Origin: Spizellomyces punctatus DAOM BR117
Taxonomy: Eukaryota
DNA length: 64,000 nt
NCBI GenBank assembly: GCA_000182565.2
Contig: KQ257451.1
Reading direction: 5' to 3' (one strand)
Part shown: one piece after another, positions 5,132-53,922 of the stretch
Layout: the number at the start of each line of letters is the position of its first letter
Numbering within the stretch: position 1 is the stretch's first letter
The notes under the pieces: model-generated
Database searches by the model: none
What the model was told of the DNA's origin: nothing
The model's input: only the letters and a program-made list of their open reading frames with translations
Position numbers and translations under genes: made by a program

Positions 5132-6952
5132 ATGTTTTCAGTAGCTGTACGGGGACTTGTCGGTCGTTCTTGTCGTGCTTCTTTGGTGGGCAGTACACTT
5201 ACGAGTAGATCGTTTGCGGGTAGATGCCACCTTCCAAATGTACGTCCATGTGCAATTGTTTTCTTTGGCGGCAAACATTAACTAAAATATCTTTACAGCG
5301 ACCCCTTTCCTCAAGTGCCCCCCGTCTCCTACCACGCCACATTTCTTCCGCGTCAACTGCCTTACCCATTGAGTCCCCCTCGACGACATTCTCCATGCAA
5401 GAGCCCTCACCAACACGTATCACAACCCTTCCGAATGGACTGAGGATCGCTTCACAGGAGGCACCAGGACATTTTGTTGCTGTGGGTGTTTATGTGGATG
5501 CAGGGACGCGGTATGAGACCGATCGAACGAGTGGGTGTAGTCATGTATTGGATCGGTCATCATTCAAGGTGGGTTATCGAGTTTTGTTATTGCGCGGTCA
5601 GGATGAGTGCTGACGAGTAAAGATAGAGTACAAAAGATTTCACGACAGAGCAGCTGGTGCAGCAACTCGAGTCTTTGGGCGGGAACGTTGTAGCACACAG
5701 CTCACGAGAAGCCATCATGTACCAAGCAGCCGTCTTCAGACATGATTTGGAAAAGATGATGCAGATTTACGGTCAAGTGGTCCGACATCCTCTTCTCCTC
5801 CCACAGGAAATGGACGATACACGCAGCACAACGCTCTACGAAATCCAAGATCTGTCCATGCGTCCCGACATGACACTCCCCGAAATCCTACACGCGGTTG
5901 CTTTTCGAAATGCAGATGGGACGCCATCGACACTCGGAAGACCTTTATTGTGTCCTATCGAGAATCTGGAAGCCATGACGCCCGAGCTGTTGCGTGAGTA
6001 CCGATCTACATGGTACACACCGGATCGGATGGTTGTGGCAGGTATTGGAATGGACCACCAAATGCTGGTAGATCTCGCCACACGCGAATTTGGGGATATG
6101 GCACCCGCAACCCCCGCCATTACCGCTTTGCAACAACAACAAACCAAACCTGCACATTACTCTGGTGGTATTGAACTTATTGACGCAAAGGACCTCCCAC
6201 CGTCACCCAACCCCGACGACCGACCTCTCACCCACGTTTATATTGCTTTTGAAGCTCTCTCCATGTCTGATCCTGATATTTACGCTCTAGCAACCCTTAC
6301 GAGTCTCATGGGCGGGGGTGGATCCTTTTCCGCGGGTGGACCCGGAAAAGGCATGTACACCCGCCTATATACTCAAGTCCTGAACCGGTACCATTGGGTC
6401 GAAAGTTGCAACATGATCAATTTCTCGTACCTTGATACAGGGTTATTTGGAATCCAAGCGGCTGTCCCTCCATCGCCTGAAGCGCATGAGCATATTATTC
6501 CGATTTTATGTGATCAGTTGTTGAGGATGACGACCGAGATTGGTGCGGAAGAATTATCGCGTGCGAAAAATCAGCTCAAGAGTAGTTTACTCATGAGTTT
6601 GGAGAGCAAGATTGTTGAATTGGAGGACGTGGGGAGGCAGGTTATGGTCCACGGAAAACGATTAAGTGTATCAGAAATGTGTAAGCGGATCGAAATGCTC
6701 ACTGCAGAGGATTTGAAACGGGTTGCAAGACGAGTAGTATTAGGGGATGATACACCCAGTCCACTTGATTTTGGAGATGCGGCTCAAAAACCTTGGAAGC
6801 GTACTGGAGATGGGAATGCGACAGTATTGGTTCAAGGACCTATTTTTGAAAAGGATGCGTTTTTGGATATGGAGCAGCATTTGGCGGCTTGGAGGATTGG
6901 AAAGAAGAATCAGGGGGGGCGTAAGTGGGGGTTGGGTAGATTCAAGTTGTAA
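5132..6952 (+). CDS. MAS2: Mitochondrial processing peptidase alpha subunit
   Basis: Arg/Ser-rich presequence MFSVAVRGLVGRSCRAS; ITTLPNGLRIAS; GVYVDAGTRYE; glycine loop LMGGGGSFSAGGPGKGMYTRLY; RAKNQLKSSLLMSLES. Introns near 5220-5298 and 5569-5626. Confidence 0.97.
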
Positions 6953-9560: not shown

Positions 9561-11307
9561 CTACACATCCTCCTCGGACTCTGACTCTGAGACGTGCACT
9601 TCCGACAACTCGGACGTGGGCGATGACGGCTCCAACCCTCCCCTCTGAGTCAACGCATCCACATCCACATCAGAATCACTCGACGAGTACTCTACACGTT
9701 GCTTTTTAACAGGTAGATCAGGAGGTTTGGACTGACGGTTGGATTCAGTATGCAAGAGGCGGCGTTTGGTGAATTCGCTTGCTAGAAAGACGTGGGCGGG
9801 TTGGATGATGGCTGTGTCGCCGTCTTCGTATTGGACACGCAATTGTCGGCCATCCTAATAAGCACGTGGAAAAATAAATTCTTTTATGCATAAAAGAATG
9901 AATAGAAAGATGCAACATGCCTTGTACAGTTTGGACACGATGGCCTTGTAGAATTCGGTAGAGAGTTGGCCTTGGTCGCGGTAGAGAGCGTATACGGCGT
10001 CCCCTGAATGAAAGGTTTTGGTGCAAGATGTATAGTCGAGGATTTTTGATGGGGGTACGGTCCATGTTGTGATGGCTGACTTGTCAGTGGGGTCGGGGTC
10101 GGGGTCGATGCAGGTGTAGAGCTAAAATGTGCGAAAACGTGAGGACGAAGAGTGCAATGTAGGAAGGGATGAGAGAGAACGTACATTGGTTTTTGGGTCG
10201 TAATGGGAGATTTGGACCGTGTATACGACCTCATGGTTGTCATTGCCATTGTTCTCGTCGTCGTCGTCGTCACGAGAAACGGTTACAATCGCTGCAACCA
10301 TTTGACCCTTACGAAACTCGGCAGCCTTGTTGGGCGCCTTGTTGGGTACCTTGCCCGTATTGGAAGCACTCGTGCGCTCTGCTTTTGCCACCCCTTGTTT
10401 CTCTCCCTTGTCGGATTTGCTGGCGGCTCGCTTCTGAGGAAGCACCTGACTAGGTTTTGTTGCTTGGGTAACGAGTGAGCGGCGGCGCTCTCCAGGGGAT
10501 GTACCTTGTGCGTCTTTCTTTACACCCTTTTTGATCCTGGCCTTGCCACTCTTGGCCAGTATCTCGTCATCCATCCTAGTCTTTGCATCTTTTATGACCG
10601 CGTCCACCCTCTCCTTGCCTTCAACTCGCTTCGCGCTACCGCCCTTCTCAGCGCTCTGTTCAACTTTATCAACGTCATGATCATCCTCGACTGATTTATC
10701 CTTGCTCTTTGCTCCATTCACACTGGCTCCCGCCTCAATCACAGACTCGGCTGTCTTGTTATCATCGTCTGTCCTCGGAAGCTGTTCATTGAGGGCGACA
10801 CTTTGTTGTATTGGGCTTTCTACCACTGGTTCCGTTACTGTGTCCTTATTTTGATCGCCATGCATGTAGGCCAGGACCTTGTCATGCAACAAAGCCTCCA
10901 TATCCTTGTCCTGCCACAGTTGGCGAGTCTCTTGAACAAAATCGACATTGTCCAATATAGTCCTGCAAAAGTGTGTGTAATGATGAGCGAATTGTTGACA
11001 CGAAGCCGCGACCCAAACGAGAAAATGTGCGGGCACGGGTGTGTTTCCGGAAATACTTTGCAGAAAGAACATACTTTAACTCTGAACCAATCCATGCGTC
11101 GAGGAGAGCTTTCTGGCGGTCCTCATTGTGCCCTTGGAGCAAGAGGAGACGGTCCTTTGGGAGCGGAAGGAGATGAGCGATGAGCGAGTGGATGCGGGCG
11201 TCCAAGTCCTTGTTTGTGGGAGTGAGGAGGAAGCAGTCCAGTTGCTGTTTGGCAAGGTCTGGATCTACGTCGAGTCCGCTCGTAGCCTCCTTGATGCCGG
11301 CCTGCAT
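9561..11307 (-). CDS. Chromatin protein with C-terminal Sgf29-like tandem Tudor and helical (Shg1/BOD1-like?) N-terminus
   Basis: Spliced C-terminus FRKGQMVAA...YTCIDPDP...FHSGDAVYALY...TEFYKAIV...RVQYED. Introns about 10963-11074, 10122-10184 and GC-AG 9855-9920. Confidence 0.75.
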
Positions 11308-12408: not shown

Positions 12409-13527
12409 ATGTCATCTCCATCTACTGCATCTACTTCATCTGTCGACTTGACGGGCGGTCTATCAGACTATGCAAAGCTATTACGCTCCTTTTCTCAAGA
12501 CGGTCTAGAACCTATGACACAGACAGACAAGCGCTCCAACAGGGACTCTGGATTTGCGGGCTCTCTCGGCGCAACAGCATCTGCAGCAAGTCTGGATAAC
12601 TTGATGGAGGAGGAAGAAGAAGAAGAAGAAGAAGAGACAGTCGAGGAACACGATGAGGGTGAGTTGTGGGCTACAGTTTGGCACAAACTCCAAGAGTATT
12701 AATCTTGTAGTATAGTCTTTACGGATTACCTTCGGACGCACGGGCGCAAAACGTCACAGCTGTCCATGACCGTCGACGACTTGCTGCGGGAACTCGATTC
12801 AACCCTCAAAGTGTCTTCTCCTCTGACCACCCCTACTGCATCCCCATCCCGACCGCGCGCAAAGTCAGGAACCATGCCAATGGCAGGTAGCTCTCTCCCA
12901 ACTCTCAAGATTCCCACTGGGTTCACCCGCTCGCCTCCCTCGGCTCCGATTTGGCGCCCTCCACAAACCCCTCCTCCTCCGCCCCCAACCGCATCCCTCT
13001 CGGCCACTCCTACCGCAAGCTCGTATGGAGGAGCAGGTACAGCATTCCCTTTCCCGAATATGCTACTACCGGAAACCCCCGCGGCCCGCTCAGGCTTTGT
13101 CCAGAAACAAGCGCAAAACGTGTTTGGCTCCACTTGGAAGCGCCGCTACTTGGTCCTTGACCGTGGCACACTCTACCTCTTTCGCACAAAAGGCTCTCAA
13201 CAAACGGAACTAGGCAGCATGCTCCGTATCACGCCCGACACGTGTGTCCGCGTGTCGGAAAATGGGTTATGGGTTCTTGAAATCCTTGGATCAGGCGTCG
13301 CTGCCGATTTACTCAAGGACGCCTCCGATAAAGAAAAGGGAACCAAGAAAATGTGGGTTATTAAATGCGATGGCAAAGATGACATGGTGGGATGGCTGGA
13401 AGCGGTGCGAGCTGCCATTAAGCAAGTGCCCGTGGCTCCACCGAGTCCGATGGCTACCCCTCCAACATCCCCGAAAGTTAACCGGGCCAAAGGGTCGTCG
13501 TCCATGGCCTTGAGCATGATTGGGTAA
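12409..13527 (+). CDS. PH-domain protein with acidic and proline-rich regions
   Basis: RSGFVQKQ...TWKRRYLVLDRGTLYLF...KDDMVGWLEAVRAAI. A 57 nt intron (12659-12715) removes the in-frame TAA. Confidence 0.88.
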
Positions 13528-25321: not shown

Positions 25322-26686
25322 ATGTCCAATGTAAATGAACAGCTCTCTGCCATCGCCAGTTCTGCCCAGCAGAAAGAGCGTCCGGCGCATTACCGCTCGC
25401 TCTTGGAGTCAATTCTGTCTCCGTCCAACCGATTTCTCGACGAGCAAACCATAAGGGCGCTTCAAGAGATCATTTCGCACGCGATTGATGAAAGTGTTGG
25501 CTTGGTGGCCTCTCGACAGCTTTTACAGGATTTTATCACTCTCTTTGGGGGGTGGGGCCAGGGGAAAGATGGTGAGGTGGTCAAGCAAGTATGGGGCTTT
25601 GCTTTAGATACGATGCAGAGCCGGGCTGTCGCGTTTGAGGAGCAGGTACGGCAAAGTTGAATTGACGCTTGTATGCACAGGATTTTATTGTATACATTCA
25701 CGGTAGATATCGAGTGTCCGCGAAAAGCTCGCTGCAATTTATGAAGAAGAGGAAAACTGGTCAGAAGCGGCAAAGATGCTCCAGGGCATCCCACTGGATT
25801 CGGGCCACCGAAACGTATCCCAAGACTACAAGCTACGGATATACATTCACATTGTTCGTCTACTTCTGGAGGAAGAGGATGCGGTTTCAGCAGAGACCTA
25901 TATGAATCGGGCAGCTTTATTGATTGTCAACAGTGCTGATTCAGAGATGCAAATCCACTTCAAGTCATCCCAAGCGCGGATTCTAGACTACAAGCGAAAC
26001 TTTTTGCAAGCGGCGTCCAAATATCATGAGCTGTCTTATATGAGTGAAATCCACGACTCGGTTCGAATAACGCTGCTAATACAGGCAGTTACGTGTACAG
26101 TCTTGGCCGGTGCGGGACCACAGCGAAGTCGAATGCTTGCTACCTTGTACAAAGATGAGCGTGTACGTGAACGACCGGAACTCAAAGAAGGTGGAGTGTA
26201 TGGGATTCTGGAGAAGATGTACCTGGGTCGGGTCCTCCGAAAATCTGAGGTCGAAGAGTTTGCGGGTACACTTGCACCACATCAGCTAGCGAAACTCGGT
26301 GACGGAACAACTGTGCTAGACCGTGCGGTTATTGAGCATAACCTTCTGTCTGCGAGTAAGCTATACAACAATATCACATTTCAAGAACTGGGAAGTCTAC
26401 TGGCGATTTCCGCAGAGCAAGCGGAACAGACAGCAAGCAAGATGATTGTCGAAGGAAATTTGAGTGGAACGATAGATCAGATTGACCGGTTGATTCATTT
26501 CAAGAAAGCACACGTCTTGCCCTCTTGGGATGCCCAAGTGTCGGGCCTCTGTCATCACCTTGATGGAGTCGTCGAAAGCATACAGACCAAGTAAGTCAAA
26601 ATTTGAGAAACTGTCACTATATTGTGGGTCCTGTTTTTCATTTCTATTGATCTAGGTACCCGGATTGGGTTGCAGGAAGATCATAG
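25322..26686 (+). CDS. CSN4: COP9 signalosome subunit 4
   Basis: [66 protein letters not shown] (PCI domain). Confidence 0.98.
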
Positions 26687-34586: not shown

Positions 34587-36659
34587 ATGCGCGCCTTCCT
34601 GCCTTTTGTTCTTGTTTGCCTCACGTTTGGCACAGTGCATGGACAAGGTAAGGACTCGATTCACTGTGCTAGAGTCTTGTTGAACTTTTGGGACTCTCTG
34701 TTGAATGTATGCGTTTTTCCTTGCAATAGCCAACAATGACACCCAGACAACAGCACAGCCTTGTGCCGTACCTCTCGTTCCTATTCCTCCTTCCTTCACC
34801 CCTTCCTTCATGTCCGCTTGCCATCCAACCCTCCGATGCTGTCTTCCTTGTCCGGCTACCGACTATCTGTACCCTCCAAACGTCATTATAGATAATCAAC
34901 GCACAATGGGCATCTTGCGCATCATATCGGGCACGGCTGCATTCCTCGTCTCCGTCTCATACCTTGTTCTCCCTGGCAAACGAGAACACCCTCGTGTCTT
35001 TGTGCTATACATCAGTTTCCTACTGGCAATATGGCACTGGATAGGAATGAGCTATTTTTTTGGTGACAAAGGACACAATGTCTTTTGTGCAAAGGACGGC
35101 GTGACGAGGGCGACTCTGGACAACAATGCCTTTTGTGCGATACAGGGCCTAACAATGATATGGGCAAGCATTGCTCTGACTTGCTGGGGACTGGTGGTCG
35201 TTTTGAATCTGCATTTGGTATGTTGGTGTGCCACTGTCTATACTCGTAGTGTGGAGGTAAATCTAATCAACGTCAAACTCTTGGATTTTTTCATCAACAG
35301 CAACTCGTGTGGTCAAACGCTGTTCTGGAGCGACTAAAGTGGGCTCCCCACTTGTTCTCCTGGGCCATCCCTACCATTGTAGCCGCTTGCGCGATAATCT
35401 CTCCTGCTGTCCAGTACGGTGGTGGAGGATTATGTTTTGTGCAAACATACAAGGGACGGTGGATTTTTTTTGTGCCAACCGGGATCCTCTGTACTAGTAT
35501 CTTTTTGATCCATACTGCCACCACTGTGTGGCTATGTCGGAAGGCACGCTGCTGCGGTAGAAGAAAGCGGAAACCTCTGCTCAAAGAAATCGAAGGCGGA
35601 CTAGGGAGTATTCCTAGAGATGCTGCAAACTCGACTCTTCTTGATCTCGATCGCAACTTGACGGGTATACCATCGACACCTCCGAAAGCGGCAATCCTTA
35701 AAAGAACAAGCCGCGCGACGTTCACAGGCGTGAGCAAGTCATCAGATAGCTTACTTCAATCGGTCGGCTCGCTCACTAGAAAAGTGTCAGTAAAGCTTTC
35801 TGGCGTAGGCACTGTTCAAATACGACTCATAGGTGTCGGAATGATCGTGGTTGTTATCGCCACGGTATACGGTCTGTCGTGCAGCCTTGACAAAACTCAA
35901 ATTAGCGGGTTTTTCAAAGCAAAGAATGCCGAACAAACACCCGCCGAGGACCTTGTAGCCTGTATGCAGACAGCCCTGACACAGCAACCGCCATTGTCGA
36001 GCAGCCAAGTTTTTGACATCTGTAAAGCTCTCATAAAGCTAAAAAGAGGAGTGGTCTTTCCTAGTCCGGAGAGATGGATTGCAACCGAAGTCATCCTCTC
36101 CCTTCCTGGCCTTTGCCTTTTGGTCATGTTAGCGAATAGTCTTGGAAGAGACTGGCGAAATTGGTGGAGCACGAAACGTGACGCGGGAGGTGGTACGAGA
36201 GGGGACAAAGATGCGTTGGAGTTGAGACCCTACAAATGGGAACGATCACCATCGCCAACATCAACGAGGTCCACAAAAGGGCTACTGCCACAATCCGTTT
36301 CCCCACCACTCGCGAAATCCCAGCTATCCACATCGTTTCCAACACAATATTCCGAATCCCTGTCGGACCTTTCCTCATCAGAATCAACGTCACTGCCACA
36401 TATCACCATCCCAGCTGCTGCTAAAACTCCTGCCACACCCAACACATTTACCTCACTAGTGCCGGAGACGCCGTCGACAGCCATTGGCGAATCTACCTCC
36501 CAAGGCACATTTTCGACAAGTTCAGTTGGCACACCTGTTTTGGTTCCCTCGAGCTCATCCATTCCAGTAGCTCCTGGCTTTGAGCGAGTCGCACACGAGC
36601 CAACGATAAGTCACCCTTCTGAACAGGAGGTGTATGGACCAACCTTTTCTCCCTGGTAG
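34587..36659 (+). CDS. 7-TM receptor, Frizzled/Smoothened-like without a CRD (fungal GprM-like)
   Basis: Signal peptide, CCLPCP...YLYP linker, SYLVLPGKREHP, ECL1 VFC...NAFCAIQG, VVVLNLHL, ECL2 GLCFV, long ICL3, Ser/Thr-rich tail. Confidence 0.8.
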
Positions 36660-47358: not shown

Positions 47359-48263
47359 GTTGACGGTTGAGTGATATGGATAAGATGTATGGAGAATGAA
47401 TGCGTTTGCTCTTGATACGTGGGAACAAGTTGGGACAGAGCTGCGAGACGAGAACAAAACGTCCAGTTTATAAATAGTCAACAACTGCAAAAGACATGGA
47501 TTCGAAGCGATATGAGTCATCATGTGTGATACAAACCAAACTCATTTTTACCATGGCAACAAGCGAGTGATTATGAGATGCCCGACTTATTCCGGCAGTG
47601 TCTACCAAATAGTTGGAGAGTCATTAGGAATGTTGAATTGGTGGTCGTCGTCGTTGCCTTTTACGCTTGCGAGCAGCGAAACTCGCTGCAGGCTTTAAAG
47701 TAGATTATTTAGATCGTGGCAAAGGATGGGTACTGCTTCAACAAAAACCCAAGGTGTCCCCCAGGGCCTTGAGATCATTAAACCCCCATGAAGCAGAACC
47801 TGCAGCATGGCCTCGCTTCCCTAAAGAGCACTCAGGTCAACTGGCGCTCATCCAAACCGTCAGCCATTGCATCCAAACAAGGGACCACCAACATACAAAG
47901 GAGCTCTTGGCCAAAAACGCGTGTTGGCTGCGTGGCAGTGTTCCTCAAAAACTTGGACTCAGCCCTAATTGCTTGCTACCTTTTGTGTGTGATGAGGCTG
48001 TTTTCGCCCCTTCCCCCGCTTGCTTTTTGCTTTGACTTGTGGAATTGCTGAGCGTTCCAACCCTTTTTTGGGACTGTTCTGCCGTTGTACCCACAACCAT
48101 GTTGCAAAGCCAAGCCATGTTGATACAAAAAGGAGGAGCAACCTCCCGCATTTCGCACTAGATTTCACTGCTGACTTTGACCATTGCAAACACATTCCAC
48201 ATTCCTAAAGAGAATACACCCTTTTGACAACCAGCGCAAGCAGACTTGCTACATATTGGCAGC

Positions 48264-50406
48264 ATGCATATACCCACATCAGCTCTGCTGCTGTTAACGT
48301 TGGGAGGCACAGGTAAAGAACTCAGGCGCTCTTGTTGCGGCACTGCACCGTCGACCACACTTTTGAACACTATTTTTTTTTTTTTTTTTTTTTGGTCCGG
48401 CTATACAGCTCGCGCCTCCCTCGCTCACAACCACTTGGCCGAGCTTCATGCCCAAGAATACCCGGCTCGCCCTCACGCTAACATCCACGCTGACCGGTAC
48501 TACTCCAACCGTTACAATTACCAACACGGCGACAGTTACTACCGGGAGCGTCCCGAATACGAAGAGTATTCAGAGTACTCTGACTACGAATACCAAAGGA
48601 CCCACCCGCACTTGTTTGGGAGTTCGGGTCGCTATGGCGGGAGGCAATCGATACGTCCACATGAACAGGGCGTTAGGGTCCAGGCTGCTGACGGTGAGTA
48701 AACGCACCATCTAATGTGGAGCAGTGGAGCATTGCCTTTGGGTTCTTGCATATGTCACATAATGGCTGTTGCCATTCGGGCCTTGCTTTGGGAATCTGGC
48801 AGAAATTTGTTTTCCGTCCATGTACTGATCCGATTTTATCCCAGGCTTTGCTGGCCCAGATGGTCTCAATGCTACCGATCTTCAGGCTGTGCAATATATC
48901 ATTATAGGGCAAATCGTTGGCGCTTCCAACGACAACACACAGGCCATGGTTCAAGTTCAATGCAACATTAAGGGATCTCCGGCGTTAGCGCGTGGGGGAG
49001 CCGGGGGACCTCCAGGACCTAATGGTCCTCCTCAAAACGGACCCGGTGGCCCTCCTCAAAACGGACCCGGTGGCCCTCCTCGAAACGGACCCGGCGGTTC
49101 TCCTCAAAGCGGACCCGGTGGCCCTCCTCAAAACGGACCCGGTGCCCCTTCTCGCTTGCCTCAAGGGCCTGGCGGACCACCAGGTAATCCATTTGATTTG
49201 GGGCCAGGTGGATCTCCTCAAACCGGACCCGGTGGGCCGCAAGGACCTGGGCCACAGGGACCTGGTGGGCCACCCGGGCAATTCGGTCGGCAAGGGCCAG
49301 GTGGACCGAATAGCAATATGGAAGTCCCTCCTCAATGGCGGCAAACTTTCGACAACCTCCCTCCTGAAACTCAAAACGACTTGAGGAACATGTTTGGACC
49401 TCCGCAAGGTCCTCCTCGATCGGGTAAGTGATTTGTGCGGTTCGTAGTGATTGGTCTAATCAGAAAGCTGATGATCCGCATGTTAATTTAGGTCTTTGGA
49501 AACGTCAGATGCCGAATGGCCAGGTACCCCCTGAGGGACCTCCGGGTCCTGGCGGTCCTCCCGGTGGTTTCGATCCTACTAATCCAGCTGGTCCTGGTGG
49601 GCCTGGAGGTCCTCCCGGTGGTTTCGATCCTACTAACCCAACTGGTCCTGGTGGGCCTGAAGGTCCTCCCGGCGGTTTCGATCCCAATAATCCTGGTGGT
49701 CCTGGAGGTTTTCCTGGCGGCTTTGATCCAACTAACCCAACTGGTCCTGGTGGGCCTGGAGGTCCTCCCGGCGGTTTCGATCCCAATAATCCTGGTGGTC
49801 CTGGAGGTTTTCCTGGCGGCTTTGATCCAACTAATCCCAGTGGTCCCGGCGGTCCCGGCGGTCCTTCCCGTGGTCCTCAAGGTCCCGGTGGTTTTGATCC
49901 TACTGATCCATCTGGTCCTGGTGGTCCTGGTGGTCCCGGTGGTCCCGGCGGTCCGGGGCCTAATGGTCCGAATGGCCCTGGCGGTTCAGGCGGTCCAACC
50001 AACGATACTACTCCTACGAACGGCCCGTCCGACAGCCAACCTATCCAGATATCTGGTTTCTCCCAACAATGCACACCGAGCGTTGGGAACACTTCAAGTA
50101 TTTCTCCTTACTGCATCTGCTGGCCGACAGCCAACGTACACCCTTGCCGGTGGATGCACTGGAGTACAGACCGCTTCCCGCGACACTCTTCAACAAGTCT
50201 CAAACGCCCTTGGTGCCAACCGGAACGAACTGGCAGGACGACAATGTGACGTTCTCCCGCCGCCCGGCCAAGGAGGCAACACGAATGGAACGTCAACCCG
50301 TCTTCAATCTGCTGTGGGCACTCAGAGTGCTGCTGGAAAGTCTGTCATTGGATGGAGTGGAATGATGGTTGCGATTGTCGCCACTCTGGGCTCGTTGTTG
50401 CTTTGA
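48264..50406 (+). CDS. Secreted, probably GPI-anchored Gly/Pro-rich repetitive surface protein
   Basis: Signal-like [16 protein letters not shown], Tyr/His-rich segment, GPGG repeats, hydrophobic C-terminus after SAAG. Introns about 48313-48408, 48694-48844, 49424-49491, 50082-50130. Confidence 0.8.
49003..49995 (+). repeat. Coding tandem repeats (GPGGPPQN)n and ([14 protein letters not shown])n
   Basis: 24 nt unit GGACCCGGTGGCCCTCCTCAAAAC in 49020-49140; GGFDP repeats in 49540-49910. Confidence 0.95.
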
Positions 50407-50850
50407 TCGTGTGATACATGGTGTGGAAAGGTGTGATTTTGTAGATTGCTGTGCTGCAGGTGGGCTCTTATGATGAGCTGCACATTTCAATATCTTCTTA
50501 AATACTTGGTCTTGCCGCCGTGTATCAATACAGATTCCTGTAAAATATCATTGCACACTGTTCATATGGACACTATTTGGATCCAGAATGCATCACATAA
50601 AGCCCTTGGGCCACGATTCAAAAAGCACGGCAATCATCAAAAATAATTCATCATCTTGCAGACAGCTCCGCTTGTTGAACCATGAATCATCGTTGCCATA
50701 ACAACAAGCTTGCGCACGTCCTGCCCAGTAGCGAATTCCGCTCAATCTTACAAATTCTGCAGCCTTATGCCCCACACTTGCGCCCCTGGCACTTCATCAT
50801 CTTCATCACGCACTCCATCACACACACCATCAACACACATCTCTTCAAAC

Positions 50851-51595
50851 ATGGTCAAGGCAGTCAGTGTTGTACGTGGTGACTCTCCTGTCACGGGCAC
50901 GGTCACCTTTACCCAAGAGTCAGACAGTGCACCTACCATTATCGAGATTGACTTGAAGGACTTGACACCCGGAAAGCACGGGTTCCATGTTCAGTAAGTA
51001 TCTTGGGAAGTTGGGGATAGTGAATAGTTTCTTGGAGATGGTGGATTCACGGGTCATGGCGCGTTAATCATGATGGGATTATTTGGTTCGATTGCTGCAC
51101 ATAGCGTTTACCAGTAACTTACAATGTTTCGAATGGGTTTCTGTAGCGAATTCGGTGACAACACCAACGGATGCACCTCCGCCGGTGGTAAGTTCTACCT
51201 TGGACTCGGTTCACATGGTTCACGCAAATCCTAAGTTGATGTTGTGAACAGGTCACTTCAACCCTCTCAACCAAACTCACGGTGCCCCCACTGACTCTGT
51301 TCGCCACGTTGGTGACCTCGGAAACTTGGTTGCCGGCCCTGACGGTACCGTCAAGACCAAGATCGAGGACCAACACATCAAGTTGATCGGTCCCTTGAGC
51401 ATCATTGGTCGTACGATTGTGGTTCACGCTGGTGAGGACGACCTTGGCCGGACTGACCACAAGGAGTCAAAGATTACTGGAAACGCTGGTGGTAAGTCTG
51501 AAAAAGGACATTGGATTCGCTAAAAAGGATGACCAGATACTGATGTGTTATTGGTAGGCCGTGTGGCATGTGGTGTTATTGGTGTTGCGAAATAG
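50851..51595 (+). CDS. SOD1: Cu/Zn superoxide dismutase
   Basis: [64 protein letters not shown]. Confidence 0.99.
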
Positions 51596-51864
51596 AGGAT
51601 TATAATTCATAGTTGTAACTGTGTCGGCGGTCACTTTTTTTTTGGCCATAAAGACTTTACATTGCAGAAATATCATATACGAATACAGAAATGCCGTGGC
51701 CTGAAGGTCTTGATACCAGATGGTAAATCTATTTACTATTAGATAGTGTGGCGGTGACAGAAACTGGCACTAGCTACTACACCAAGGAATAAACCGGCGA
51801 CAACCGGTTCGGAAAAGCTAAGCTACTACTAGGCAATTATACACGCAATACGTAACGGTTGGTT

Positions 51865-52734: not shown

Positions 52735-53922
52735 ATGGTCGTTCCCATGCCTGAATCTGAACGAGGGACATACCACACGTCTCCCCTCGACTTTTCACGC
52801 GAAGCTTACAGAACTCGGCATGCACCAAGCGCCATAATTTTTGGCGATGGGTCCACTCGGTGGTCGCATGATGTTACTGTTCCTGAGCCTTTGGATGAGG
52901 AACCTGAGCCAGTATTTTATTCCCAGTGGGCAAGAGCGGGAGCGCGGTTAGACAGTGGCTTTGACTATGTACCCGTCAACCCTTTTGACGATATGTTCGG
53001 TTCCAGTGCCGAGAGCAGTTCTGAGGAGGACGAGGACGAGGAAGAAGAAGAGGAGAGGGTCGGCGTTTCGGAGGTTGGGCAGACGACTATGAGGGAGGAG
53101 GAGGAAGGACAGGCTGATGATGAGGATACTGATGAAGAACTTGACGACGAGTCAGAGACGGATGAAGACGAAGAAACTGAAGACGATGAAGAAGATGATG
53201 ACGACGACGACGATAATGACATTGAAGAAGGCAACGATCAAGCGAACAATTTTTCCTACCAATATAATTTATTCTGTGCGAGCTGCGAAGACCAATTTCT
53301 GATCTCCTTGCGACAACCCTTCTCTGGACAGTTGCAGTGTGTATTCTGTGGTCGGCCTGCTACCACCTTGCCTGCCACCGACGACGAAGAAAGTCCAAAC
53401 TTGAATACACCTACCGATTCAGATGTGCGTCGACAGCAAAATGAACAAGTGGAGGTTACACCTAATATACCACGCCAAACGCGAGAAGATGACTTTATTG
53501 CTTTGACGGATCCTTCGTCGGAATCAAATCCTTCAAGATCTTCTTCGCCTATACCGTCTGCTCCACCACCTCCACCACCACCCCCACCACTGAGACAAGA
53601 AACACAGACTTCACCCCGAACGACATCGTACCACCCGACACCACCAGCCCAAAGAATTCTCAACGCTTATCTGGAAGAGTTTGGTCCAAACCTTCCTGAC
53701 CTTGATCGGCTTGTTGCATTATGTCCATCCTTAGTTGTCGATGGAACGACATCAAACGGAGCAGCGTCATCCTCTTCCTCTTCGTCTTCGTCGTCCTCGC
53801 CGTCGTACCGAGACAGAGTGATCTCACAGGCGGATTTTGCCTCTCTTGCGCCCTTGAACTATGAAGCTGGGTGGTTAAGAAAGCGAAAGAGGGACATGGA
53901 TGATGACGGGGTAGGCAGATGA
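52735..53922 (+). CDS. Acidic low-complexity protein with a CxxC...CxxC zinc ribbon
   Basis: 395 aa intronless ORF; D/E tract, FCASC...LQCVFC, poly-Pro, C-terminal RKRKR (NLS-like). Confidence 0.75.
   Translation: MVVPMPESERGTYHTSPLDFSREAYRTRHAPSAIIFGDGSTRWSHDVTVPEPLDEEPEPVFYSQWARAGARLDSGFDYVPVNPFDDMFGSSAESSSEEDEDEEEEEERVGVSEVGQTTMREEEEGQADDEDTDEELDDESETDEDEETEDDEEDDDDDDDNDIEEGNDQANNFSYQYNLFCASCEDQFLISLRQPFSGQLQCVFCGRPATTLPATDDEESPNLNTPTDSDVRRQQNEQVEVTPNIPRQTREDDFIALTDPSSESNPSRSSSPIPSAPPPPPPPPPLRQETQTSPRTTSYHPTPPAQRILNAYLEEFGPNLPDLDRLVALCPSLVVDGTTSNGAASSSSSSSSSSSPSYRDRVISQADFASLAPLNYEAGWLRKRKRDMDDDGVGR

Follow-up and report, generated by a model that had tools for sequence, protein, structure and literature searches.

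A transcribed, lineage-restricted gene of Spizellomyces punctatus for a predicted glycosylphosphatidylinositol-anchored surface protein with a Gly/Pro-rich insert between two flanks that may form one domain

Introduction

Can two short protein pieces that lie 332 residues apart, with a Gly/Pro-rich repeat region between them, belong to a single folded domain at the cell surface of a chytrid? This question is raised by a gene at positions 48264-50406 (+ strand) of a 64,000-nucleotide (nt) stretch of contig KQ257451.1 (GenBank assembly GCA_000182565.2) of Spizellomyces punctatus DAOM BR117; this whole stretch is referred to below as the window. Spizellomyces is a zoospore-forming soil fungus of the chytrid group, and to our knowledge very little is known about the surface molecules of chytrid zoospores and young cysts or about their adhesion. 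An original prediction, made from the DNA letters and their translations, had read the locus as a surface protein in which a domain of the NtA/TIMP type is split by an elastomer-like insert of GPGG repeats. In this work we find that the locus is an expressed, lineage-restricted orphan gene. We lean, by a modest degree, towards the explanation that it encodes a secreted, glycosylphosphatidylinositol (GPI)-anchored surface or wall glycoprotein carrying an elastomer-like insert, the flanks of which probably form one domain. The assignment of this putative domain to the NtA/TIMP family finds no match in any of the profile, sequence or structure-chain searches described here.

A single transcribed gene of four exons

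By sequence reading, scripted exon assembly and transcript contigs, positions 48264-50406 resolve into one gene on the + strand with four exons and three introns, opening with an ATG at 48264 and closing with a stop codon at 50404-50406. Exon 1 (48264-48312), placed by sequence and model, carries the start codon and most of a signal-like N-terminus, and is followed by intron 1 (48313-48408; 96 nt), which contains a run of 21 T. Exon 2 (48409-48693) encodes the end of the putative signal peptide (..ARASLA) and then a segment rich in Tyr, His, Arg and Glu. Beyond intron 2 (48694-48844; 151 nt), exon 3 (48845-49423) encodes the N flank, the first repeat block and the first part of a spacer, while exon 4 (49492-50406), reached through intron 3 (49424-49491; 68 nt), supplies the rest of the spacer, the second repeat block, the C flank, the tail and the stop codon. 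All of these features lie on the + strand and each intron has GT..AG borders.

Four sequencing runs were aligned to positions 47900-50800. One of them, X12, is raw RNA sequencing data with the same species label; another, X7, is recorded without its kind of data and was taken as RNA-derived because its contigs carry intron-sized GT..AG joints. X7 contigs skip intron 2 (depth 23.8, shorter side 213 nt) and intron 3 (depth 24.7, shorter side 47 nt), connecting exons 1-2-3 and exons 3-4, with no single contig crossing the repeats; no bin between 48191 and 50518 lacks X7 depth, which is unbroken across 48264-50516. Removal of intron 1 follows from the depth arithmetic of X7 contig 10, which measures 546 nt (213+288+45): the depths of 5.88 in bin 48191-48287 and 5.15 in bin 48288-48384 equal 23.8 x 24/97 and 23.8 x 21/97, which places the contig's remaining 45 nt on 48264-48308 and therefore indicates that intron 1 is spliced out, the row for the joint itself being absent from the alignment output, where it was dropped at the T run. 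At the other end of the gene, X12 depth reaches 107-208 over 50228-50518, and eight X12 reads with loose A15 ends behind 50570, where the depth is 166-208, place a poly(A) site near 50570, about 164 nt past the stop codon, and define a 3' untranslated region at 50407-50570 (+). Taken together, the X7 joints and the X12 poly(A) reads show that the gene is transcribed on the + strand and polyadenylated. The original prediction, which did not mention the three introns, had treated the exons as parts of one gene, and the exon-linking X7 contigs and the continuous depth bear this out: there is one gene with one transcript, rather than separate genes. The gene region is also the most GC-rich of the window (0.553 vs 0.42-0.50 elsewhere).

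Several further observations concern the transcripts of this region. The 21-T run of intron 1 lies at 48373-48393, and since the length of this intron is a multiple of three and it holds no in-frame stop, a retained intron 1 would leave the frame open. Upstream of the gene, X12 reads cover 47900-48206 (+) at a depth of 1-6.5 and stop sharply at 48206 (8 molecules), a position that resembles the 3' terminus of a + strand transcript from further upstream; it lies only 58 nt before the ATG and would leave very little room for a promoter. Over 48288-48869, X12 reads at one- to twofold depth, with the first mate on the - strand, extend over exon 2 and part of each neighbouring intron, while the reads at the 3' end lie on the + strand; the former may represent an antisense or unspliced transcript, or a mixture of library types in the run set. 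In addition, contigs from two root or rhizosphere metatranscriptomes (X1 and X4) match the gene exactly at 48949-49056 (108 nt), 49139-49300 (162 nt) and 49713-50063 (351 nt). The same or a near-identical strain thus seems to have been present in these root samples; their shares are small and DNA carry-over is possible, and we draw no conclusion on habitat or expression from these matches.

A frame break in the assembled copy

One base in the last exon separates the window from its transcripts. At 50085-50087 (+) the window reads GGG and the transcripts have one G fewer: a 609-nt X7 contig, unspliced over 49913-50516, omits one base at 50085 (depth 41.2), and the X12 reads over this position (1 of 1) are likewise one base short. 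The C flank as quoted in the original prediction crosses this frame change. Left as it stands, the window's frame ends at 50249 without the GPI-like tail, which exists only in the frame supported by the transcripts. Most likely, the extra G stems from a faulty assembly or represents a strain allele. Homopolymer miscounts are a common error of assemblies, and with the extra G probably being either such a miscount or an allele of the strain, other homopolymer runs of this assembly are perhaps suspect too. As a different cause of the frame change we considered a 49-nt intron at 50082-50130 (GTTGGG..CAG) and rejected it, given that the X7 contig and the one X12 read are unspliced and one base shorter.

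The GGG at this site, and the early end of frame 0 that follows from it, could also be taken at face value, in which case the copy of the window strain would be a frameshifted pseudogene, or mis-assembled, and the intact protein would be absent in that strain. We consider this unlikely, given that the extra base is missing from the transcripts of two data sets, at the contig depth and read count given above, and that the gene is transcribed and polyadenylated in X12. Beyond the frame break, X7 differs from the window by five further single bases, at 48982, 49108, 49118, 50126 and 50190, four of which change a residue (A>S, S>G, G>A, R>Q) and one of which is silent, a hint that the gene evolves fast or under weak constraint.

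Layout of the predicted protein

The product has about 608 residues (608 counted with an X at the frame break), arranged as a signal-like N-terminus, a Tyr/His-rich head, the N flank, a Gly/Pro insert of 332 residues, the C flank, a Gly/Ser/Thr stalk and a GPI-like tail. The signal-like N-terminus (residues 1-22) has a hydrophobic core, with 11-residue hydropathy windows 3-7 above 1.6, and small residues at ARA/SLA. The head that follows (residues 23-111; 48426-48692, +) holds 13 Tyr, 10 Arg, 9 His and 9 Glu among its 89 residues. The N flank, encoded in exon 3 (about 48880-48975, +; residues about 125-155), spans 31 residues, of which 12 are hydrophobic or Tyr, and comprises two amphipathic beta-type stretches and Cys151, with an NAT sequon just upstream. 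The C flank (50040-50247, +; residues 488-556) reads, in order, PIQISGF, Cys498, PTYTLAGG, Cys526, a helix-like stretch and Cys556. After residue 556 comes the stalk, a Pro/Gly/Asn/Ser/Thr stretch with an NGT sequon, and the protein closes with a GPI-signal-like C-terminus (50326-50406, +) made up of the small residues SAAG, the spacer KSVIGWSG, a hydrophobic end and the stop codon. Hydropathy windows 589-598 exceed 1.6 here, and no charged residues lie beyond the hydrophobic stretch, which ends the protein. The whole protein contains four cysteines (151, 498, 526 and 556), one in the N flank and three in the C flank, and three N-glycosylation sequons (N120, N475 and N569).

Because both ends are hydrophobic, the protein is predicted to be secreted and GPI-anchored, and we infer a surface or wall glycoprotein. 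Fungal GPI proteins are recognized in part by a repeat or low-complexity stalk with glycosylation sites, and the present protein offers two repeat blocks, the sequons and a Gly/Ser/Thr stretch before the tail. In these respects the layout agrees with the original prediction, which had proposed a Tyr/His-rich N-terminal segment (13 Tyr and 9 His in 89 residues), a signal-like start and a GPI-like tail, both of which hydropathy recovers as hydrophobic ends, and two non-repetitive flanks, which are found where it placed them, the N flank as quoted lying at 48886-48975, the C flank beginning at 50040 and its ...YTLAGGC stretch ending near 50160. The general picture of a surface protein with an elastomer-type insert stands as well, in view of the hydrophobic termini, the sequons and the composition of the insert.

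The Gly/Pro insert and its single dibasic site

The insert comprises exactly 332 residues between NIKG and PIQIS, of which 62% are Gly or Pro (Gly 32.5%, Pro 29.2%) and 26 are hydrophobic. GPGG occurs 25 times within it, compared with a mean of 3.27 (standard deviation 1.66) in composition-preserving shuffles, none of 5000 of which reaches 25. Two unlike blocks make up most of the insert. Block 1 (48991-49296, +) is built from units of about eight residues, GPGGPPQN and variants, with 70 Gly or Pro in 102 residues, and block 2 (49539-49988, +) from units of 15-18 residues, with 108 Gly or Pro in 150 residues and a 99-nt double unit that is 90% conserved; within the blocks the Gly and Pro content amounts to 69-72%. 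At the DNA level, Tandem Repeats Finder reports an array of period 24 with 5.5 copies, 87% matches and a score of 206, and in block 2 arrays of period 54 (score 318) and period 99 (score 430, 90% matches). Between the blocks lies a non-repetitive spacer (49297-49538, +; residues 263-320), which is interrupted by intron 3. No other Gly/Pro-rich reading frame was found in the 64-kb window. High Pro and Gly in short tandem units, as found here, is the mark of elastomeric proteins, which form a functional class and not a homology family. A passage of PMC5703643 traces the disorder, hydration and elastic recoil of such proteins to their high combined Pro and Gly, and because this content is so high here we read the insert as a probably disordered, hydrated chain of the elastomer type, which could act as a flexible spacer or entropic spring.

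The spacer carries the sole dibasic site of the protein, LWKR (K308-R309; codons 49500-49505), so that the arrangement first proposed, of two GPGG-repeat blocks separated by a KR site, is confirmed. With an aliphatic residue at P4 and KR at P2-P1, we take LWKR to fit a kexin site. One alternative to a single anchored chain would therefore be a kexin-processed precursor, in which a cut at LWKR-Q frees the N-terminal half (head, N flank and block 1) as a soluble adhesive or matrix polypeptide, while block 2 and the C flank stay GPI-anchored. The position of the site speaks for such processing, in that the one dibasic site in 608 residues, with its Leu at P4, falls where the sole non-repetitive spacer parts the blocks, and the blocks differ in their repeat units, as two separate products might. 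However, known kexin-processed repeat proteins (KEPs) carry many units, each ending in KR, whereas the present protein has one dibasic site that lies off the unit borders; the 1+3 split of the cysteines and the weak support for co-folding described below further suggest that the two halves remain together. We thus regard release of the N-terminal half as distinctly improbable.

Relatives and lineage

Searches for relatives of the gene were made in protein collections, in the Atlas and in metagenomes, and none of them returned one. A word-indexed search with residues 1-45 of the N flank gave eight candidates among proteins of 337-2000 residues, none at E <= 0.01, and among proteins of 105-336 residues a search with the N flank gave no candidate. 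With phmmer, a 106-residue piece from the C-terminal side had two matches at E <= 0.001 among 1.84 billion representatives; judged by reading, one is of a Cys-rich repeat type and the other of a HEAT-repeat type, and both were set aside as unrelated repeat proteins. Metagenome locus scans with both flanks yielded 594 and 510 pattern matches, none of which was confirmed, and in the Atlas the C piece had no usable match while the best score of the N flank, 0.81, was to unnamed bacterial clusters and below the level of a lead. A tblastn search of all segments against the 64-kb window found no paralogue.

As a control we searched with the open reading frame of the M16 peptidase encoded in the same window. 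Its best match, 98% identical, was from Spizellomyces sp. 'palustris', followed by other Spizellomycetales at 74-83% and then by other chytrids; the protein collection therefore includes proteomes of close relatives. These matches speak against an ascomycete origin, which intron style and the neighbouring superoxide dismutase gene might have suggested, and they make the zoospore setting of the original prediction apt; its candidate role as a zoospore adhesive or cyst-coat protein would suit such an organism. From these searches, the gene appears either to be confined to this species group or to be missing from the annotations of its relatives, repeat-rich genes being often missed by annotation.

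No match to the NtA, TIMP and NTR families

The original prediction had assigned the two flanks to the agrin NtA/TIMP/NTR type of domain, and it is here that the results depart from it. In hmmscan searches of Pfam-A at E <= 1, exon 2, exon 4 and the frame-1 C piece matched no family, and exon 3 gave one chance match only (2-oxogl_dehyd_N, E 0.077). At E <= 10, with the NTR, TIMP and NtA models included, no family was found for the N flank, for the C flank (with an X at the break) or for the last-exon protein, each query piece covering only part of the putative split domain. Similarly, phmmer searches of 177,635 distinct sequences of the Protein Data Bank (PDB) at E <= 10 gave no match for the N flank and two to three chance matches for the C flank, at E 0.5-1.7 (an acyl-CoA dehydrogenase and DNA processing chain A); exon 3 had none at E <= 1. 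No solved TIMP, NTR or agrin chain was among the PDB matches at E <= 10. NTR modules typically have six cysteines forming three disulfides, and the entire protein has four. The literature searched holds no description of this protein or of an NTR-like domain in fungi, and we know of no reported NTR module interrupted by an insert of 330 residues.

What remains in favor of a true NTR, TIMP or agrin-NtA OB-fold member split by the repeat insert is a resemblance seen by eye. The order of elements can be read as beta-beta-[insert]-beta-beta-beta-helix, a possible five-strand-plus-helix order with hydrophobic motifs of the YxxxG type, and a low-confidence secondary-structure assignment agrees on the last two strands and the helix. 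The likeness of the flanks to NTR motifs serves as a lead only; the tentative support for the flanks folding together points the same way. Set against this, at thresholds of E <= 1 to 10 no Pfam family was found for either flank or for the exon pieces, the one chance match in exon 3 aside, and no solved TIMP, NTR or agrin chain at E <= 10; there are four cysteines in place of the usual six, and an Atlas search gave no named lead. Membership in this family therefore appears very unlikely.

Do the two flanks form one domain?

The proposal that the two flanks belong together, irrespective of family, fares differently. With only about 31 residues, the N flank is too small to fold alone, and since the four cysteines are split 1+3, even pairing within one molecule requires the flanks to meet. 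Co-folding was run with three unaltered pieces of the protein as separate chains, in which a 52-residue piece containing the N flank was the partner and the other two chains were the last 30 residues of the frame-0 part of exon 4 and the first 62 residues of its frame-1 part. Three runs gave an interface score (ipSAE) of 0.52, 0.50 and 0.52, compared with 0.01, 0.01 and 0.04 in three controls, passes at <= 0.60 being a band into which 5 of 78 solved complexes fell, together with every one of the 4 passing mismatches. The runs agree in at least 84% of contacts, and in the confidence measure pLDDT the partner scored 65 and the other chains 62-63, as against 32-40 in the controls. For the two C-flank chains, pLDDT went up from 33-34 to 62-63 with the true N flank and with no other partner, and such a gain of about 30 points is what a split domain predicts. 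The method's own verdict is weak support. Modelled alone from its single sequence with AlphaFold2, the C flank has a pLDDT of 39.8, and DSSP assigns to this low-confidence model the strands QVFLLT and TYTLA as well as a helix. From these models, the odds that the N and C flanks form one split domain may be put at about even, and of the split proposed in the original prediction, the association of the flanks is plausible, with weak support from co-folding, and the N flank alone was modelled as a helix.

A simpler reading is that of an ordinary GPI-anchored, Gly/Pro-rich wall protein with independent flanks and no split domain, in which the N flank (QYIIIGQIV) would be an aggregation-prone beta segment that clusters molecules. 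The N flank is short, 12 of its 31 residues are hydrophobic or Tyr, and it is rich in beta-branched residues; we liken its Ile/Val-rich stretch, by assumption, to the amyloid-forming cores of yeast adhesins. The support from co-folding is weak, and no match to a family or fold links the two flanks. On the other hand, independent flanks would leave an unpaired cysteine on each side of the 1+3 split unless the flanks pair or molecules cross-link, and they would not account for a C-flank confidence that climbed into the sixties in the company of the true N flank and of no other. We consider independent flanks a minority possibility, less probable than a shared domain although one to be taken seriously.

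We nonetheless continue to favor, by the modest lean stated at the outset, an anchored glycoprotein whose flanks probably share one domain. Several points weigh against it. Passes of the co-folding method at <= 0.60 are wrong in the majority of cases, except where the guess was a probable one from the start, and a three-chain job with eukaryotic pieces lies outside its calibration and returned no contacts or coordinates. Modelled by itself with AlphaFold2, the N flank becomes a single long helix (pLDDT 58.1), which disagrees with a hairpin, at a low confidence that we regard as uninformative. No relative was found that could show conservation or covariation. The signal-peptide and GPI assignments come from inspection and hydropathy, the window's own copy is out of frame as it stands, and the four residue-changing differences among the five found in X7 fit weak constraint as well as fast adaptive change.

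A possible mechanism of action

If the favored explanation is correct, the N flank (two strands) and the C flank (three strands and a helix) probably pack into a domain of about 100 residues beside the membrane anchor, in which Cys151 would pair with a cysteine of the C flank. With the flanks packed, the Gly/Pro insert would form a closed loop, and a kexin-type cut at the KR site would not detach the Tyr/His-rich head from the anchored half. Of all segments, this head is the most probable site of substrate contact or cross-linking. A cut at LWKR-Q could then give two chains held together by the shared domain, perhaps by a disulfide.

A bolder extension of this scheme, which we consider doubtful, is a "clasped spring", in which two pieces 332 residues apart would build a beta domain of about 100 residues that is stapled by a disulfide. 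This domain would keep the Gly/Pro loop, placed between the GPI anchor and an adhesive head rich in Tyr and His, as hidden length. Pulling would open the clasp and release the spring; alternatively, kexin cleavage would convert the loop into the two free tails of an adhesin made of two chains. We know of no parallel to such an adhesion architecture described among fungal surface proteins. If true, it may serve the attachment of encysting zoospores.

Comparison with known systems and significance

Fungal GPI-anchored wall proteins with glycine-rich repeats are closest in kind to the protein examined here and elastomeric Gly/Pro proteins are closest in composition, and it is a homologue of neither. 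The GPI-anchored wall protein SsGsr1 of Sclerotinia sclerotiorum, as described in PMC10269696, shares the N-terminal secretory signal, the C-terminal GPI signal and the central glycine-rich tandem repeats. No sequence relation between the two was found in the searches described above, and they differ in that the repeats of SsGsr1 are Gly/Ser whereas those of the chytrid protein are Gly/Pro, in that the latter has two unlike blocks around a KR spacer between Cys-bearing flanks, and in that the hosts are an ascomycete and a chytrid.

With flagelliform silk, elastin and resilin the insert shares very high Pro and Gly, short GPGG-rich units and few hydrophobic residues. GPGGX is the motif of flagelliform spider silk, and resilin is cross-linked through Tyr; a Tyr-rich region also lies near the insert of the chytrid protein. 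Unlike these elastomeric proteins, however, it has no spidroin, elastin or resilin domain in the Pfam search and is predicted to be a single membrane-anchored molecule rather than a fibre or network. Furthermore, were the KR site cut and Cys151 bonded, the protein would resemble the yeast a-agglutinin Aga1-Aga2, in which a binding subunit is held by disulfides to a GPI-anchored subunit, although the yeast system uses two genes, compared with one precursor here, and there is no homology between them.

A well-expressed, lineage-specific gene with a predicted GPI anchor, a Tyr/His-rich head and a Gly/Pro region offers a concrete target for tagging and deletion in Spizellomyces, which is transformable. 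Should the split domain prove true, the protein would be a natural case of a large disordered insert tolerated within a small folded domain, which is relevant to protein design; should it prove false, the gene would add one more orphan repeat-rich wall protein.

Genomic neighbourhood

Three other long open reading frames of the window, at 10125-11072 (-), 35307-36656 (+) and 52735-53919 (+), match no Pfam family. By Pfam, the window also encodes the M16 peptidase used as the control query, which is of the mitochondrial-processing type (5657-6949, +), a PH-domain protein (12766-13524, +) and a PSMD12/CSN4-PCI protein (25776-26591, +). Directly downstream of the gene, about 280 nt past its poly(A) site, lies a Cu/Zn superoxide dismutase gene interrupted by several short introns (50851-51650, +), the exon pieces of which match the Pfam family Sod_Cu at E values of 9e-08 and 3e-12.

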